Shown here: in pieces, positions 9,492 to 30,567 of the stretch
How positions within the stretch are numbered: position 1 is the stretch's first letter
Layout of the letters: each line of letters starts with the position of its first letter
DNA from: a virus
Taxonomy: Duplodnaviria; Heunggongvirae; Uroviricota; Caudoviricetes
IMG/VR virus record: IMGVR_UViG_2713897161_000005
Length of the DNA stretch: 45,139 nt
Reading direction: 5' to 3' (one strand)
The notes under the pieces: generated by a model
Databases searched by the model: none
What the model was told of the DNA's origin: nothing
The model's input: only the letters and a program-made list of their open reading frames with translations
Program-made: the position numbers and the translations under genes

Positions 9492-9710
9492 CTAGTTATC
9501 AAAAAGTCCGTACGTTTCTTCTTCAGGAGTAAGGGGAAGAATCTCAATTCTATCTATAGATACCTTTTCAATGTACCCATGAGGTCTACTTAAAATTAAA
9601 GCTCTCTCATGCCACAGAACTCCAAGAATGTGATACCTTCCAGCATCGCCTTTTACCCTGGCTCTTCCTTTGATTCTTGGCGGCATAATGCCATATTTTT
9701 TCTTTGCCAT
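9492..9710 (-). CDS. Hypothetical protein (72 aa, basic N-terminus)
   Basis: ORF MAKKKYGIMPPRIKGRARVKG...; last gene of the island operon before the terminator. Confidence 0.4.
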   Translation of the reverse strand: MAKKKYGIMPPRIKGRARVKGDAGRYHILGVLWHERALILSRPHGYIEKVSIDRIEILPLTPEEETYGLFDN

Positions 9711-10438
9711 TATGCAACATTACTCCCATGAACCAGGTGTTGTAGTGCTTTAACGCCTTCAGAATTGTAGCGGAATGCTTCCACCTGTTTGCTGGAATGC
9801 GCAGATTTATCCAGGAAGAACTTCCCGTACTGCTCAGTTTTGAGGTTGTTTGCGTTAGCAATGCGACCAATCTTGTTTGCCGTTACTCCAAGCTGCTCTG
9901 CGACCTCCCCTGCTGAGTAGTAATGCTCTTCTATTGCCGGAAGAGGTATTGCATTAAAACCAACGAGCGGGTTGATTATACTTGCTGCCGCTGTCTGCTT
10001 TGCCTCCGGCGCAAGATTTGGCATCAGATCGAACAGATTGGTAACAGCTTCAACCGTCATTTTCAATGTTCGCGCTTGACGATACTCAACAAGTCCACTC
10101 GACGATTTACCGCTTTTAATGTGCGCTTCTTGCATCCTTTCAAGTTGGTCTACAAGTGAGCGGCGAACAGCTTTAGATTCACGAGCAGCCACTCGAAGGG
10201 CTTGCTTAATTGACATAACAACTTTTTCAGAAGTTGTCTTGTTTGATTTTTGAACTACGAAAATTTCGTAGTGCTCACCTTCAAGTTCATCCTTAATGCG
10301 TGCAATAAAGTCGTTATTTCGAACTTCTTTTTCCCCGCACTGTCTACGAGCATGATTGACCATCTCTAACAGGTACTGGCTATCAATGGTTTTATCCGTG
10401 ACAACGGATCCGATGTTTGCTACATTCTTAAAAGTCAT
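9710..10438 (-). CDS. Antirepressor-like / phage regulatory protein (KilA-C-type C-terminal region, putative)
   Basis: Start at ATG 10438 (MTFKNVANIGS...) preceded by AAGGAA; C-terminal segment YSAGEVAEQLGVTANKIGRIANANNL resembles antirepressor DNA-binding regions (from memory). Confidence 0.45.
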   Translation of the reverse strand: MTFKNVANIGSVVTDKTIDSQYLLEMVNHARRQCGEKEVRNNDFIARIKDELEGEHYEIFVVQKSNKTTSEKVVMSIKQALRVAARESKAVRRSLVDQLERMQEAHIKSGKSSSGLVEYRQARTLKMTVEAVTNLFDLMPNLAPEAKQTAAASIINPLVGFNAIPLPAIEEHYYSAGEVAEQLGVTANKIGRIANANNLKTEQYGKFFLDKSAHSSKQVEAFRYNSEGVKALQHLVHGSNVA

Positions 10439-10475
10439 TAGGCATTCCTTATGTGGTAGTAAGGGTGTGACATAG

Positions 10476-10504
10476 GCCGCCAGCAGCACACTGGCGGTTT
10501 TTTT
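10476..10504 (+). terminator. GC-rich hairpin plus T7 tract, part of a three-segment alternative-pairing element
   Basis: GCCGCCAG(10476-83)/CTGGCGGT(10491-98) then TTTTTTT (10498-10504); a third copy ACCGCCAG at 10506-13 can pair alternatively. Lies between the two antirepressor-like genes. Confidence 0.4.
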
Positions 10505-10521
10505 CACCGCCAGATGCGTCA

Positions 10522-11445
10522 TTAATACAGATGAACAGAAGGCGGCAATTCTTTATTCTTAAGCCTTATCCATGCGGAAAGATTTGTTGGTCCGTCTGGC
10601 TCATTGATATCAACATCTCGTGTGTGGTTGATTAAAACGTCTCTCGCCGTTCCGATAACATACGAGAACTCATGACCGTAGTCGTAGCATCTGCCGGAAT
10701 AGTTCGATTGAATTTGTTTTAGCGCCGGATACAGTTCGCGGAATAATGCCTGTGAGCGGTTGGCATAATCCCATAGCCATACAAGGCTGTTTGCTTCTTT
10801 TGCAGAAAGCTCGTTGACTTTCCTCTCTTGTTTGCCGATGAACTCTCCTTCAAGCGGAACGCGAGCAGCAAGTGACAGTGCTTCGGTAAACTGCTCCTCA
10901 CTGATTTCTTTGTACGAACATCCAAAATGGGATTTCAGTGACGACCACATGGTGATCATCGCCTTAGCCTGTTTTTCTTTTGGCAGAGACTGACCGCGAC
11001 TCATGACGAGTTGTTTAATGGCTTCCTGCTGTTCAGTGGTAATTTTACCCGGCAACGCCTTTTTAGCTTTGCGTGGATTAACCACATGGCCTTTAGTCCA
11101 GTATTCGTAGAGCACATCGTCACACTCTTCCTGATACTGGATTACCTTGTCGCGGATTTCAGGGCGGACTTTGTTTGGTTGAATACTTGAAAGCCAAGCC
11201 GCAAATTTACGAAAGGCAAGACATGTCATTAACTGTTTACCGCCAGCAGAAGGTATTTCGATTTCCGAAATACCTTTGGCAAACCTTTGTTTTAACTTAA
11301 CAAATTGAGCAGCCCAAACCAGCCCCATGCCTTCAACAACAGGCCTCATAGGAACATAAGGCTCATTGTTAATTCCAACCAAAAACAGATTTGTTCCGTG
11401 GAATGGTACATTGATAGTAGATACCGCTGTTGCTATACTTTTCAT
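10522..11445 (-). CDS. Antirepressor (Ant-like), 307 aa
   Basis: Large ORF directly downstream of an Arc-like gene, as ant follows arc in P22 immI; N-terminal region looks antirepressor-like (from memory). Confidence 0.55.
   Translation of the reverse strand: MKSIATAVSTINVPFHGTNLFLVGINNEPYVPMRPVVEGMGLVWAAQFVKLKQRFAKGISEIEIPSAGGKQLMTCLAFRKFAAWLSSIQPNKVRPEIRDKVIQYQEECDDVLYEYWTKGHVVNPRKAKKALPGKITTEQQEAIKQLVMSRGQSLPKEKQAKAMITMWSSLKSHFGCSYKEISEEQFTEALSLAARVPLEGEFIGKQERKVNELSAKEANSLVWLWDYANRSQALFRELYPALKQIQSNYSGRCYDYGHEFSYVIGTARDVLINHTRDVDINEPDGPTNLSAWIRLKNKELPPSVHLY
11411..11439 (+). promoter_or_regulatory. Near-consensus sigma70 promoter antisense to ant (Psar-like)
   Basis: TTGATA (11411-16), 17-bp spacer, TATACT (11434-39); lies inside the first codons of ant on the opposite strand. 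Confidence 0.5.
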
Positions 11446-11518
11446 GTCAATATTTCCCGATCAGATTTGTTGATATAGAAGCCTCGCCAGTTCCCGCTGT
11501 CGGGGCTTCGTTATTTTT
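11446..11518 (+). ncRNA. Candidate sar-like antisense RNA (~70 nt) covering the ant RBS and arc-ant spacer
   Basis: Predicted start ~11446 from the promoter above; ends at a hairpin (11478-11509, GAAGCCUCG/CGGGGCUUC) followed by GUUAUUUUU. Same layout as P22 sar. Confidence 0.45.
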
Positions 11519-11678: not shown

Positions 11679-11700
11679 TGATCACTCCTTTTTACGTAAT

Positions 11701-11761
11701 GGCATTATGCCTTGAAAGCAATATGCCATCATTGAATATAAATAGCAATATGCCATCATTG
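11701..11761. promoter_or_regulatory. Divergent promoter/operator region between arc and mnt
   Basis: Two perfect 17-bp direct repeats GCAATATGCCATCATTG (11718-34, 11745-61); palindrome GGCATtATGCC (11701-11); TTGAAA(11712-17)...TATAAA candidate promoter toward mnt. Confidence 0.45.
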
Positions 11762-11780
11762 TTTTTTTTGAGGTGATGTT

Positions 11781-12101
11781 ATGGCTGAAAAACAGGTTAA
11801 AGATTACGAAAAGTTTGTTGTGCGTTTCCCTGACGGGATGAGGGACGCGATTGCGGAGAGAGCCAAACGAAACGGGCGCTCTATGAACTCAGAGATTGTG
11901 CAGATACTGGAAGATGCCTTGAATGCAGAAAATACTCTTGGGGAAATAGCAGACAAAATCAACAGCGTCTCGGTTCCGCTAAATGTTGATGCGCTAGTTC
12001 AACTTCAAGCCCAAGTGATCGCCATGCAAAAAGAAATACAGGAAAAATTCAGAGAGCAGAACGAAAAGTTGAGAGAACTGCTAAACAAAAAACCCACCTG
12101 A
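11781..12101 (+). CDS. mnt: Mnt-like ribbon-helix-helix repressor (106 aa)
   Basis: N-terminus FVVRFPDGMRDAIAERAKRNGRSMNSEIVQILEDAL matches the Mnt/Arc RHH pattern; GAGGTGA RBS; divergent from arc. Confidence 0.6.
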   Translation: MAEKQVKDYEKFVVRFPDGMRDAIAERAKRNGRSMNSEIVQILEDALNAENTLGEIADKINSVSVPLNVDALVQLQAQVIAMQKEIQEKFREQNEKLRELLNKKPT

Positions 12102-12112
12102 CGGTGGGTTTT
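12089..12112. terminator. Bidirectional intrinsic terminator between convergent mnt and the lipoprotein gene
   Basis: 10-bp stem AAAACCCACC/GGTGGGTTTT with 4-nt loop; T-rich on both strands; overlaps the mnt stop codon. Confidence 0.55.
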
Positions 12113-12135
12113 CATTACATATCAATTAATACCTA

Positions 12136-12798
12136 TTATCTTCTGATCGCTTTACGCCAATCCCCGGATAATCTAGATATATCCCAACACGACTGAACAA
12201 CTTCAGTAAAATACTCTCTATCCATTGGCGCGATTCCTGGCCAATCTTTCATTCGATTTACTAACGCATCTTTTGGTATGCCCTTCTTTTGATTCAAGGA
12301 GGTTTGTTCGCAAATCGCCCTTACCGCAGCATCATATTCAGCCTGAGCATAATGATTCACACTAAGAAGCACAGTGTATGCTGTTGAAAGTGAATTCATG
12401 GAAGATGAGAGTTCTTTCTTCCTCCGACACTCTTTATCAGCAAGGCATTTCTCTTCAGCTAGTTTTTTTTCCGCTCTCTTCTTGTTATTGAAGGCGTTAA
12501 TCCCAGAATCATAAGCGTTAGCCCATACATTGTAATAACACTCTCCATCCCAGCCGCATTGCGTGGTATCTGGAGCGACAAGAATCATCCCTGTTTTTTT
12601 TAGATAATCATTTTTAAGCCTATTAACAGTCCATGACTCTCCGCTTTTTGCTACATACTCTTTATCACCGAATTCGCTTTGCTGTTGCTGAGTGGTTGGT
12701 GGGGTTATCGAACACCCGTACAATAAAGAAGCAGAAAGAATCAAGAGAAAGTGTGATTTTATTTTTCTTACACATTCACCACGATTAATTAATGCCAT
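12136..12798 (-). CDS. Putative lipoprotein / secreted Cys-rich protein (220 aa), accessory gene
   Basis: Signal-peptide-like N-terminus with lipobox-like LLYGC; AGGAG RBS; AT-rich by eye; sits beside mnt where P22 carries sieA. Confidence 0.5.
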   Translation of the reverse strand: MALINRGECVRKIKSHFLLILSASLLYGCSITPPTTQQQQSEFGDKEYVAKSGESWTVNRLKNDYLKKTGMILVAPDTTQCGWDGECYYNVWANAYDSGINAFNNKKRAEKKLAEEKCLADKECRRKKELSSSMNSLSTAYTVLLSVNHYAQAEYDAAVRAICEQTSLNQKKGIPKDALVNRMKDWPGIAPMDREYFTEVVQSCWDISRLSGDWRKAIRR

Positions 12799-12996
12799 AC
12801 GGCGACTCCTGTCAATTTAGCATGATATACAACGGATTACCTTTGAGTTGTTCATCATATTAACGAACACAATAACTTCAGGTAAACACCTAATCCTCCC
12901 TCATCATCATGCATGAAGAAAAAACACGTATTTATCATACATGTAGCATTAATGACTGTTACCTCCAATTGGTTGGCAAAAATCATCACTGACAGG

Positions 12997-13245
12997 CTAT
13001 GATTTGAATAAGTGCTCATGCCGTGCTGATAGCTCTACTAGCAACTTCATCGCTTCTACCGCGTCTGCCGAGGTTGATTTAGGTGACGCAGCAATGGACC
13101 TGAGTGTGCTCTCTAAACTACACAGGGATAGAGAATATGCCAAATTTAGCTTTATCACGGCGGCTAAGTCTGTTTCATCATGGTTTACGAGTTTGTCTGC
13201 TTCTTCTGGGGTATACCCACTCGCAACCAATCGTGCGTGCATCAT
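12997..13245 (-). CDS. Hypothetical protein (82 aa)
   Basis: Minus-strand ORF preferred over the overlapping plus-strand ORF 13004-13255 because of composition and local gene polarity. Confidence 0.3.
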   Translation of the reverse strand: MMHARLVASGYTPEEADKLVNHDETDLAAVIKLNLAYSLSLCSLESTLRSIAASPKSTSADAVEAMKLLVELSARHEHLFKS

Positions 13246-13329: not shown

Positions 13330-13569
13330 TTAATTTCCATCAAGAGCAGCAAGCAGCGAAGTGCGCAACTTTTCTTGAGTCATTTTCAACTCTCCGCTCT
13401 TTGCTTGCCTGCGAAGATCATCGACCACCATTTTGGTGAATTCTGTAGGGGTAATCTCACTCTCGATAGAGACCTCTCTCCCAAGAAGCAATGATATCCC
13501 ACCCAAAATCAGGCTAAAGGCATTACCAATATTTTTTAACGATGGAGTGTAAACGATGGAAAGTTTCAT
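13330..13569 (-). CDS. Hypothetical protein (79 aa) immediately downstream of the tape measure gene
   Basis: ORF with a hydrophobic central segment; weak RBS. Confidence 0.3.
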   Translation of the reverse strand: MKLSIVYTPSLKNIGNAFSLILGGISLLLGREVSIESEITPTEFTKMVVDDLRRQAKSGELKMTQEKLRTSLLAALDGN

Positions 13570-13624: not shown

Positions 13625-15439
13625 CTAAGGCATTGCACTAGAAAATGCCGCGTTTGTTGACACCCGGCTAACTTGCTGATTGACACTTCTGGTAAGAGCA
13701 TCAACTGTTGTCGGGTTACTGTTAACAACAACCGTGCCAATAGTTGTACTGCTGCTACGACTGTTGTCAATTTTTGATGTTGTCTGGCTTGGTGTTGAAG
13801 CGATGCGTTGCTGCTGCTGATAGTAAGCCAGCGTCTCGTTTTCTTTTGCATTAAGAGCGGCGCGAATCTTTGGCACATATTCTCGCGTCTCTTTCGGTAA
13901 GGTGTTCCAGTATTTGGATGATGGTGAATCAAACCCGGTACTGGATATGTATTTTAACTTTTTGTCTACATTGCCCATCCCCCAGTTGTAAGCCATCAGC
14001 GCATGGTTAACATTGCCTTTATAGTGCTTTAGCAAATCCCTCATGAACCTTTCAGCAGCAGCGCGAGATTTTACCTCATCAAGACGCTCATCAATCCCAT
14101 CACCGACCTTTAACCCGTACGCTATGGCAGTATCCTTCATGAACTGATACGGACCAACAGCACCTTTCGGGCTGTAAAGTTTTTTACCACCACTCGATTC
14201 CACCTCACGAATGGCATCAAGAAGAGAATCCATGCTTACAGGCTTTACTCCGTCAGGGAGAGGGATATCTGGCTGAATGTTATTGCCATAAATCTCATCT
14301 CCCCTACGCCCAAAATCGGTGTCAAACCCCATGCTGCGCATGGTATCTCCAAGTTCACGCTTAGAGTAATCAAACGATCCTTTAGCTGCACCCTCAATGT
14401 TTTCCCTGTCATTGTAGAGGTACAAACCATATGCTATTAACCCAGCCAACCATGGAGGAAGGGCACCGCCTGTAAGTTTGCTTCCTACATATGCTGCTGC
14501 CAATAGCTTCAGAGCCTCTTCCGCGCCACCAACTGCCTTTGTGAATTGCTTCGTCATATTCCCGGCGTCATTGAAAAAGCCAATGATGTCGCCATGATGT
14601 TTCTCAATCCAGGAACCAAAAGCCTTCATCCCGTCAATAACGTCTGGAGCGAATGCCATGGCTAAATTTTGCTTTAATCGGGAAAACTCTGAATCAAGTT
14701 GACCAAGAGTGGCGGCAACCTTCTCCTGCTCTTTTACCTGCTGTGCGCTAATACGGGATTTCTTTGTTTCTGAATCGACAAGCTGCTTAAGTTCCCCTGA
14801 TTTTATTTTAGCGGCATCTGTCGGATCGAACCCTGCGGCCGCCATCACCTGCATCAGGTTTTCTTGAGAATGAGTCTTGCCATAGCGAGAAAACTCAGCA
14901 AGAGCCTTGTTTGGGTCACCGAGCTTATTGATATCTAATCCGGTACGAGCGCCAAGAACCAGCAAATTTTGGGCAGCGCCAGTAAGCCCCCCCATAACAG
15001 TTGGATCGGCAATATTTGCCAAAGCCATTCTGGCATTCCCAGAAGATGAAATGAACGAGTCACCGTTAAGACCAGCCTGGCGAAATCCCCGCTGAACACC
15101 AAACATCTTATTAACATCAGAACCGAAAAACTTGGCCTGTTGACTGGCTCTCACGATTTCGTTGGCAGTAGATGTAAAAAGTTGCTTGATTCCATACAAC
15201 CCGGCGCCAATTCCCAAAAATCCAGCGGCTGCGGTTGTCACGTTGCGGAAAGCTGAAACAGCGGTTTTACCGAACCTCTCCGTTTCCTGCCGCTGTTTTT
15301 CAAGTTCCTTTAGCCTTTCCTTCTCAGCCCTGGAAAGATCTTTGTTTAATTTACTAACTTCATCTTTTACTTTCCGTTTTCCATTCAGGAATTCATCGGC
15401 CTTAATTGTGACCTTGTAGGCCAACTCATTGATAATCAT
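13625..15439 (-). CDS. Tail tape measure protein with lytic transglycosylase-like region
   Basis: 604 aa, N-terminal coiled-coil-like region; C-proximal EVESSGGKK...GPYQFMKDTA...AYNWGMG resembles SLT catalytic motifs (ES...AYNxG). Confidence 0.7.
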   Translation of the reverse strand: MIINELAYKVTIKADEFLNGKRKVKDEVSKLNKDLSRAEKERLKELEKQRQETERFGKTAVSAFRNVTTAAAGFLGIGAGLYGIKQLFTSTANEIVRASQQAKFFGSDVNKMFGVQRGFRQAGLNGDSFISSSGNARMALANIADPTVMGGLTGAAQNLLVLGARTGLDINKLGDPNKALAEFSRYGKTHSQENLMQVMAAAGFDPTDAAKIKSGELKQLVDSETKKSRISAQQVKEQEKVAATLGQLDSEFSRLKQNLAMAFAPDVIDGMKAFGSWIEKHHGDIIGFFNDAGNMTKQFTKAVGGAEEALKLLAAAYVGSKLTGGALPPWLAGLIAYGLYLYNDRENIEGAAKGSFDYSKRELGDTMRSMGFDTDFGRRGDEIYGNNIQPDIPLPDGVKPVSMDSLLDAIREVESSGGKKLYSPKGAVGPYQFMKDTAIAYGLKVGDGIDERLDEVKSRAAAERFMRDLLKHYKGNVNHALMAYNWGMGNVDKKLKYISSTGFDSPSSKYWNTLPKETREYVPKIRAALNAKENETLAYYQQQQRIASTPSQTTSKIDNSRSSSTTIGTVVVNSNPTTVDALTRSVNQQVSRVSTNAAFSSAMP

Positions 15440-29629: not shown

Positions 29630-30067
29630 TCATCGAAGGCATTGCGTCCTGATGTATTCCTGCAAGTAGTTAACCTGCGCGGTTATCCTGTCGATTCCAC
29701 TTCGGAGACGGTAATAATTGAGTTCAGCATCTGCTGTAAGTCTTGGGCTTTCTCCATCGCCCATGCTGCTGGCTCCGGTCGTTGGCTTTGCACAGGTGGC
29801 GGCGACTTGCAGGCGCTTACGACCAGCAGAAACATCAGCACGGAGGCTTTCGATAGTCGCGTTAGCATCAGCAAGCTCCTTTGTGTATCTGGCGTCGAGT
29901 TCTGCTACATCACGTTGACGCTTCTGCATATCAGCGATGATGGATGTGGCTTTATCGCGCTGGTCTTTGTAGGCGATGGCGTTATCACGGTAATGATTAA
30001 CAGCCCATGACAGGCAGACGATGATGCAGATAACCAGAGCGGAGATAATCGCGGTGACTCTGCTCAT
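29630..30067 (-). CDS. Rz: Spanin inner-membrane subunit Rz
   Basis: From ATG 30067 (overlaps the endolysin stop, ATGA): [31 protein letters not shown]... matches lambda Rz N-terminus from memory. Confidence 0.75.
29683..29874 (-). CDS. Rz1: Spanin outer-membrane lipoprotein Rz1 (embedded in Rz, +1 frame)
   Basis: 63-aa ORF wholly inside Rz; lipobox LVVSAC followed by a Pro-rich segment. Confidence 0.6.
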
Positions 30068-30567
30068 TGCTGCCCCCACAAACAGACTTCACGCTCAATA
30101 TCACGACGGGTCATCAGCCCTTTCCATTGCTTACCGCCAGCGTATGTCCAGCGACGTAGCTGGTCACATGCGCCTTTGATATCACCCTGGTTTATTTTGC
30201 GAAGAAGCGTCGATGTTCTGAAATTGCCAGCCCCCACGTTGTAGACGAACGAGTAAAGAGCGCCGCGCGTTGTTTCCGGTATATCGACTTTGATGTACGG
30301 GTTAATTTGTCTGGCGACCGTGGCAAGGTCTTTATTCAGGAGAGCTTTGCATTCTGCTTCGGTATACGTTTTACCGAGCATGATGTCTTTTCCTGTATGC
30401 CCGTAACATACAGTCCATACACCAACTATGTCTTTGTAAGGATTATGTCTCACACCTTCCAGACCATCGTTACCACTTGGGCCAGTGATTAACACAGATG
30501 CTATAGCAATAGCCCCGCCACTTATCGCCGCTATTACGCTATTTCGTAGTGCCGGTGACATTGCCAT
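30064..30567 (-). CDS. SAR endolysin (T4 lysozyme-like muramidase with N-terminal signal-anchor-release domain)
   Basis: Gly/Ala-rich weakly hydrophobic N-terminus ([19 protein letters not shown]), then E-x8-D-x5-T catalytic spacing ([17 protein letters not shown]). Confidence 0.75.

Follow-up and report, generated by a model that had tools for sequence, protein, structure and literature searches.

A moron-type lipoprotein gene in the tail operon of a lambdoid-regulated temperate myovirus, with a possible role in phage exclusion

Here we describe a lipoprotein gene lodged among the late genes of a temperate prophage. The open reading frame at positions 12136-12798, on the minus strand of the window (the whole 45,139-nucleotide stretch of DNA that was analysed), is a genuine gene, and at least 24 Escherichia coli or metagenome contigs carry an identical protein. 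Judging from its sequence and its surroundings, it can be classed as a dispensable accessory gene of the moron type in a cargo slot, and its product as a member of a rare, small, new and uncharacterised family; the kind itself, morons that encode prophage envelope proteins, is known. The gene is neither a relative of SieA, the superinfection-exclusion protein of phage P22, nor a categorically new system. Since it encodes a lipoprotein, is an accessory gene standing beside an immI-type cassette, and occupies a slot with defence-type cargo, a role in exclusion or in host interaction would be the most reasonable reading. The fuller account that we favour, that of a moron whose product excludes phages by masking a receptor from the periplasmic face, is tentative, and taken as a whole we give it a probability of roughly 0.35.

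An earlier note on this DNA, made from the letters only, had proposed a 220-residue protein with a signal peptide and the lipobox LLYGC, several cysteine pairs and a ribosome-binding site of its own, all of which hold (Table 1). The N-terminus (MALINRGECVRKIKSHFLLILSASLLYG, followed by C29-S) obeys the PROSITE PS51257 lipobox rule, with a Tyr at -2 that lies outside the strict [ASTVI] set, and on this match the protein is a predicted lipoprotein. Charged residues (R6, R11, K12 and K14) mark the n-region, after which come FLLILSASLL and then L-Y-G-C29. The signal peptide is the only hydrophobic stretch, there being no further transmembrane helices, and within the window this is the sole credible lipobox-bearing reading frame that is not a spanin, the Rz1 spanin being the other.

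Six cysteines lie in the mature part (C81/C87, C118/C124 and C163/C204), and from their spacing disulfides would probably form between 81 and 87, 118 and 124, and 163 and 204. Across a family alignment of 38 sequences the lipobox Cys29 (38 of 38), C163 and R160 are invariant, while C81, C87, C118, C124 and C204, together with Y141, D156, G188, R194 and W205, are kept in at least 90% of the members. The lipobox pattern was found in 44 of the 54 sequences retrieved, the remainder being fragments or doubtful matches. None of the retrieved sequences has Asp at +2, and by the +2 rule the lipoprotein, with its Ser, is predicted to be sorted to the outer membrane.

Table 1. Features of the lipoprotein locus and other genes in the window.
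Feature	Position	Strand	Evidence or remark
Lipoprotein CDS, 220 aa, mature N-terminus Cys29	12136..12798	-	ORF list; ATG start; family alignment
Signal peptide, residues 1-28; lipobox L-Y-G-C; Cys codon 12712-12714; Ser at +2	12715..12798	-	PROSITE-type lipobox match
Shine-Dalgarno AGGAG, 7 nt 5' of ATG	12806..12810	-	direct sequence reading
Upstream non-coding block, about 236 nt, travels with the gene, GC about 0.37	12799..13034	-	homology boundaries, composition
Weak sigma-70-like site, GTAACA-17-TATGAT	12962-12934	-	promoter scan, 9/12 matches
Hairpin terminator AAAACCCACC-tgac-GGTGGGTTTT (hairpin 12088-12113)	12083..12113	strong on -	RNA fold, U6GU3 tail
106-aa Mnt-like RHH repressor, its gene facing the lipoprotein gene	11781..12101	+	Pfam Arc 1.6e-19; 47% identity to P22 Mnt in the RHH region
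Arc-like repressor, 53 aa	11517..11678	-	PHROG 582, 1.6e-10
Ant antirepressor, 307 aa	10522..11445	-	P22_AR_N and P22_AR_C domains in identical loci
Second antirepressor-like gene, directly after ant	9710-10522	-	PHROG 1726, 2.4e-99
604-aa tape-measure (or lytic tail) protein with an SLT lytic transglycosylase domain at its C-terminus; gene 5' of the lipoprotein gene in the late operon	13625..15439	-	Pfam SLT 3.5e-20, PHROG 2013
Rz, with Rz1 embedded	29630-30079; Rz1 29683-29868		17 kb from the lipoprotein gene

The family to which this protein belongs is sparse and hardly annotated. PHROG 26209 (function unknown; 6.5e-30) was the only family matched; Pfam, NCBIfam, PADLOC and the PDB offered no credible relative, and a Pfam search with all 38 family members returned nothing consistent, neither the Bor family nor any other. 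Weak hits to Pfam Intimin_C (E = 0.014, below its cut-off) and to PADLOC JetC (E = 0.0098, 12 bits) were put down to chance resemblance between coiled coils, and one to TrwH among the PDB sequences (E = 0.72) was confined to the signal peptide. A word-indexed search of 5.8 billion proteins yielded four clusters, namely the identical protein from E. coli, labelled "hypothetical protein", and three relatives that share 50-57% identity, and an exhaustive profile search of 1.84 billion representatives yielded 47 proteins (clusters) at E <= 1e-3. Among 50,697 phage records only three Yersinia enterocolitica myophages have a homologue, and a scan of genome contigs for relatives found none. The named members come from Escherichia, Citrobacter, Pectobacterium, Dickeya, Aeromonas and Zymobacter, and are annotated as hypothetical or as "lipoprotein".

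Remote homology and structure prediction, by which the earlier note had proposed to examine the protein, gave a confident helical model but no homologue of known function or fold. The AlphaFold2 model (mean pLDDT 82, about 90 across the mature part) is all-helical, with long helices at residues 85-120, 122-147 and 149-171. Foldseek found no significant neighbour of it in the PDB (best E = 1.4), a profile search of the PDB sequences with the family found no relative, and the sole match in a BFVD structure search was another family member, annotated "Lipoprotein". As modelled, then, the family would have no recognisable fold.

The carrier is best considered before the function of its cargo. The window holds a whole temperate prophage, with integrase, CI-type repressor, primase/helicase, Q antiterminator, endolysin and an Rz gene in which Rz1 is embedded. 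Its structural module comprises a sheath (PF11863), a tube (PF22764), the 604-aa SLT tape measure, Pam3_gp18, a sheath initiator, Baseplate_J, Wedge1 and collar-type fibres. The comparison with P22 made in the earlier note does not extend to the phage as a whole, which is not P22-like: this tail module is that of an E217/Pam3-like myovirus, and the phage is, by its predicted gene content, a lambdoid-regulated temperate myovirus with an E217/Pam3-type tail. The late operon runs from the tape measure through a 79-aa and an 82-aa ORF to the lipoprotein gene, followed by the convergent mnt and then by arc, ant, the second antirepressor and the baseplate genes. The neighbour that had been called mnt is a true Mnt homologue.

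The cassette formed by mnt, arc and ant encodes two antirepressor-type proteins, Ant and the product of the gene that follows it. Between arc and ant, on the plus strand at 11447-11513, lies a sar-like antisense RNA (Rfam RF00262; E = 6.6e-4, with 32.2 bits where the gathering score is 43), which suggests P22-style antisense control of ant in this myovirus. A direct repeat, caatatgccatcattg, occurs twice, about 28 nt apart, in the mnt-arc intergenic region (11700-11765), and the two copies are plausible candidate operator sites for the Mnt/Arc pair.

On the other side of the lipoprotein gene, the 79-aa ORF (13330-13569, minus strand), directly after the tape measure, has one hydrophobic segment, AFSLILGGISLLLG, and no family match. 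It is kept in all loci with an identical lipoprotein, and it could encode a small membrane protein with an accessory role of its own. The 82-aa ORF (12997-13245, minus strand) comes next, before the lipoprotein gene, and the breakpoints of homology with sister prophages cut across it; it is uncalled in the public contigs, and part of its DNA matches a DUF2513 gene region of another E. coli strain. We take it for a probable mosaic remnant, not a gene.

What is left of the likeness to P22 concerns position. The order there is 16(+), sieA(-) with its own promoter, a terminator, orf59a(-), mnt(-), arc(+), ant(+) and 9(+). The claim that the lipoprotein gene takes the place of sieA stands insofar as both occupy an analogous slot, from the last DNA-delivery gene to mnt; it fails insofar as orf59a and a terminator separate sieA from mnt in P22 and the strand is opposite: sieA is read in the same direction as mnt, whereas the lipoprotein gene faces mnt and is read along with the late tail genes. 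The two are also alike as accessory genes, each with its own terminator and presumably expressed by the prophage, in the slot before immI (mnt-arc-ant). Nevertheless, SieA is a polytopic inner-membrane protein, which the lipoprotein, modelled as soluble helices, is not, and P22 is a podovirus whereas the phage described here is a myovirus. Homology between the two proteins was rejected (BLASTP against P22 SieA, E = 1.5; no PHROG or Pfam exclusion family matched).

Regarding expression, the AT-rich upstream region claimed earlier was confirmed, the 200 bp 5' of the gene having a GC content of 0.37 against 0.45-0.49 in the tail genes. Transcription in the lysogen would probably start from the upstream block of about 236 nt. 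A promoter scan of this block gave one 9/12 site, the number of sites being within chance expectation, and -10-like motifs (TACAAT or TAATAT) are conserved 5' of the Yersinia, Citrobacter and Pectobacterium lipoprotein genes. Rfam and RNA folding of the 5' leader revealed no riboswitch-like element. In turn, late transcription by Q-antiterminated read-through of the tail operon can be taken as certain: as the phage encodes a Q antiterminator, late transcripts would cross both the lipoprotein gene and its terminator.

This terminator is a hairpin 25 nt 3' of the lipoprotein stop codon (11 pairs, -17 to -19.2 kcal/mol, z = -4.2). Its plus strand encodes the last residues of Mnt (KKPT) and the TGA. 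The earlier note had described a bidirectional terminator shared with mnt; the hairpin is indeed shared and is strong on the minus strand, where the tail reads U6GU3, but on the plus strand the tail consists of only four T. The underlying motif, CCCAC-N3-8-GTGGG (12093-12108), occurs once in the window and, with rare exceptions, once per related locus. It was found at the equivalent junctions of L001, L010, L014, L017-L019, L021 and L026, as our loci are numbered, and wherever its position was checked it marks the point at which the cargo slot gives way to the next module; it is likewise present in two sister prophages that have no lipoprotein gene. A terminator follows the lipoprotein gene in eight of the nine lineages checked, mostly of the form CCCAC(C)-loop-(G)GTGGG, with an arrangement as in the window in L001, L010, L014-L018 and L026; in L027 a terminator after the gene was looked for and none was found. 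Besides terminating transcription, the hairpin may serve as a recombination junction. Mnt-type genes (of the window, of L014 and of Pectobacterium, L018) end in NKKPT with the stop codon in the hairpin loop, the Pectobacterium Mnt being 46% identical to that of the window, and L010 retains a remnant of this end, KKPT plus stop, where mnt is lacking.

The accessory character of the gene emerges from its sister prophages. Sixteen complete E. coli genomes have the tape-measure gene at 96-99% identity; a search of 5,426 genomes, those 16 included, found the lipoprotein gene in none. In the three of the 16 in which the contents of the slot were inspected, the stretch that separates the tape measure from the repressor/antirepressor cassette encodes a P63C-domain protein (TW10590, L019), is empty (STEC299, L020), or encodes a Panacea-domain toxin-antitoxin pair and a hypothetical gene (A41, L021). 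Within these same three loci the cassette itself alternates between Mnt/Arc-type and HTH/LexA-type repressors.

Sister prophages that do carry the identical lipoprotein delimit the unit. Homology with L002 and L008 starts 236-298 nt 5' of the ATG, and homology with L005 and L008 stops just beyond the hairpin. As homology breaks on both sides of the gene, it would belong to a discrete mobile unit, at about 12084-13034, made up of the upstream block, the ORF and the terminator, in the classic layout of a moron. Presence/absence polymorphism with sharp boundaries and a terminator of its own were both found. The lambda morons bor and lom offer a close parallel as discrete late-operon units with their own terminators, polymorphic, lower in GC and encoding envelope proteins; however, Bor and Lom have no homology to the lipoprotein, and its promoter is here only putative.

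A comparable exchange is seen outside E. coli. In the Yersinia phages vB_YenM_06.16-1 and 21.09 the flanks are 97% identical and the fibre gene is the same, with another exported protein, of 210 aa, in the slot (L028:1050-1682). This protein has a Sec signal peptide (MKKTIGIISLAAIGLYASNVYS, followed by ASFDC...), and that of 06.16-1 has no Pfam or PDB match. A suspected identity as an LprI/DUF1311 lysozyme inhibitor received no support from hmmscan or from the PDB sequence search. The allelic replacement of one exported protein by another suggests that the slot would serve for envelope-acting accessory proteins.

More widely, the family is nearly confined to tail operons, although its position in them varies. 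The gene follows the tape measure and precedes the first baseplate gene in the metagenome loci L010-L013 and in an IMG/VR contig (L015), in the latter at a gap of 1 nt from the tape measure. It also follows the tape measure in two more metagenome loci, where the next feature is a convergent mnt-type 3' end (L014, our own reading, at the end of the contig) or a convergent HTH and Gp49 (HigB-like) pair (L016). Elsewhere it comes after Pam3_gp18, with an NYN cargo gene and then baseplate genes (Zymobacter, L025), after the Apex gene and before a convergent S24 repressor and Ant (metagenome, L026), or within the baseplate genes, succeeded by two ORFs and by convergent Bro-N/P22_AR_C and Arc genes (Dickeya, L023). 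A second myovirus lineage has it between the last baseplate gene and the tail fibre, followed by the fibre in Yersinia phages (L001), by convergent Bro-N in Citrobacter (L017) and by convergent Mnt, Arc and Ant in Pectobacterium (L018). Two settings lie outside the tail genes: the early region of a metagenome phage with DNA polymerase A (L027), where the gene is divergent from an AntA antirepressor gene and small ORFs come next, and the chromosome of Aeromonas jandaei (L024, 6655-7314, P0021), where its neighbours are genes for transporters and metabolism, phage genes being absent within 7 kb. The latter hints at a cellular origin or at a domesticated copy.

Compared with the window, the lipoprotein is 51% identical in L014, 47% in L015 and 31% in L016; the corresponding values for the tape measure are 61, 34 and 31%, and those for the tube 95, 83 and 86%. 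Divergence of the lipoprotein thus scales with that of the flanking tail genes, which argues for an old resident of tail operons and not a recent one-off acquisition. Furthermore, a gene of this family often precedes a convergent repressor/antirepressor cassette. Some relatives have the lipoprotein and lack the mnt-arc-ant cassette, and vice versa, so that the two are separable. Their recurrent adjacency nonetheless suggests a rule by which genes expressed in the lysogen would be clustered within silent late operons and insulated there by a shared terminator.

As to function, lipoprotein genes within the structural clusters of temperate coliphages, Lpp021 and Lpp010 of mEpimmI, exclude phages in a receptor-specific manner (PMC11893012). 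These two, along with Llp of T5 and Cor of phi80, N15 and HK022, resemble the present case as phage lipoproteins encoded within a tail or structural cluster, and their proven role is receptor-specific exclusion. In sequence the window protein (matching PHROG 26209 only) is unrelated to them. Its mature part, moreover, is a body of about 190 aa, all-helical and with six Cys. Llp and Cor are small, the mature lipoprotein being about three times their size. To our knowledge, all the characterised phage outer-membrane lipoproteins encoded in structural clusters (Llp, Cor, Lpp021 and Lpp010) act by envelope exclusion. A further parallel is Ltp of the Streptococcus thermophilus phage TP-J34, likewise a helical lipoprotein of a temperate phage and named a superinfection exclusion protein in PDB 4eqq; it differs in its Gram-positive host and cytoplasmic-membrane anchor, and the Foldseek comparison was not significant (E = 2.2, TM 0.14-0.28).

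In the account that we favour, the lipoprotein would take the Sec route out of the cytoplasm, with lipidation at Cys29 by Lgt, LspA and Lnt, and the Ser at +2 would commit it to the Lol system and to the inner leaflet of the outer membrane. From there a flexible tether of about 15 residues (SITPPTTQQQQ...) would hold the 190-residue helical domain, with its three probable disulfides (81-87, 118-124 and 163-204), in the periplasm. The convergent mnt gene, which is expressed in the lysogen, shares the terminator, and this would insulate the silent tail genes. Phage entry would be blocked at the envelope, as superinfection exclusion, and progeny might possibly be shielded from cell debris as well; the likeliest route would be binding of an outer-membrane receptor, or of another outer-membrane component, from the periplasmic side, on the model of Llp, Cor and the mEp Lpp proteins, which work by blocking receptors and are unrelated in sequence. 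Envelope exclusion is favoured by the lipoprotein features, by the precedent of Llp, Cor and the mEp Lpp proteins, by the defence-type cargo of the slot and by adjacency to the fibre in one lineage, that of Yersinia, Citrobacter and Pectobacterium, in which the gene is directly upstream of the tail-fibre gene. Against it, the mature protein is much larger than Llp or Cor, promoter-like sites are no commoner than chance would give, the gene is far from the fibre genes in the E217-like lineage, and the ordinary chromosomal context of the Aeromonas jandaei member makes a cellular envelope role possible. Nor did the searches reveal a homologue among Llp, Cor, SieA and the PADLOC defence models.

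The position after the tape measure invites a different mechanism, in which the periplasmic domain would intercept the tape-measure/SLT protein or the tail tip of an incoming phage and DNA delivery would be stopped after adsorption. There are precedents in SieA, which acts on gp16/gp20, in Ltp, whose target is the incoming tape measure, and in T4 Sp, which acts on the gp5 lysozyme. Direct succession to the tape measure in the E217-like lineage, down to the 1-nt gap of L015, agrees with such a blocker of the conduit, as does the way in which the lipoprotein diverges along with the tape measure in L014, L015 and L016; the sieA gene of P22 also adjoins the genes of its targets. We nevertheless consider it rather unlikely, because the gene is also found after Apex, after Pam3_gp18, before the fibre or beside AntA in the early region, and because two of six tape measures (those of the window and five relatives, by hmmscan) have no SLT domain. 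The same domain could be read the other way round, the lipoprotein being a periplasmic immunity protein or an inhibitor of a cell-wall hydrolase or toxin, be it the phage's own SLT domain, a T6SS effector or a bacteriocin. An SLT-bearing tape measure adjoins the gene in four lineages, and many immunity proteins are helical, disulfide-bonded and periplasmic, as this lipoprotein is predicted to be. A strict pairing with SLT is, however, weakened by the tape measures of L016 and L018, which lack the domain, and by sister prophages that have the same SLT tape measure without the lipoprotein gene; with no homology to known inhibitors either, we regard this reading as distinctly improbable.

A gain for the host itself, in the form of serum resistance, adhesion or envelope robustness, would make the protein a factor of lysogenic conversion like lambda Bor or the plasmid protein TraT. 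The architecture of an outer-membrane lipoprotein moron, the occurrence in gut and animal E. coli prophages and the chromosomal homologue in Aeromonas all speak for it. Yet Pfam links the protein neither to Bor nor to any other family, the alternative cargo of the slot is defence-like (the Panacea toxin-antitoxin pair, for instance), and the near confinement to tail operons fits such a role poorly, so that we think it unlikely. Least of all would we expect a part in tail assembly or lysis, as a virion protein or an o-spanin, which seems highly improbable. It is true that in every tail-cluster context seen the gene lies inside the tail operon and is read in its direction, but the invariant lipobox Cys marks an exported protein, near-identical prophages lack the gene and its position shifts among lineages. 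The phage has its own Rz/Rz1 elsewhere in the window, which counts against a spanin role, and identity as an o-spanin was rejected for a protein of 220 aa encoded 17 kb from that pair.

In the boldest reading, the family would be a new class of Gram-negative exclusion lipoprotein with a disulfide-stapled helical fold of a kind not seen before, acting in the periplasm on the tape-measure/SLT conduit of contractile tails as a counterpart of Ltp, Sp and SieA, and moving with the convergent repressor/antirepressor cassette as a composite lysogeny island insulated by one shared hairpin. We hold this to be doubtful.

Phage envelope proteins that block other phages bear on phage therapy, on prophage ecology and on the prediction of host range, and few such exclusion families are mechanistically understood. 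The family described here has no characterised relative and no recognisable fold, and it is compact enough for cloning. In enterobacterial temperate myoviruses of a widespread group, the gene also marks a cargo hot spot within the tail operon, a slot in which it alternates with a toxin-antitoxin pair and other cargo. If the lipoprotein does exclude phages, escape mutants would reveal which step of infection by contractile-tailed phages is blocked.
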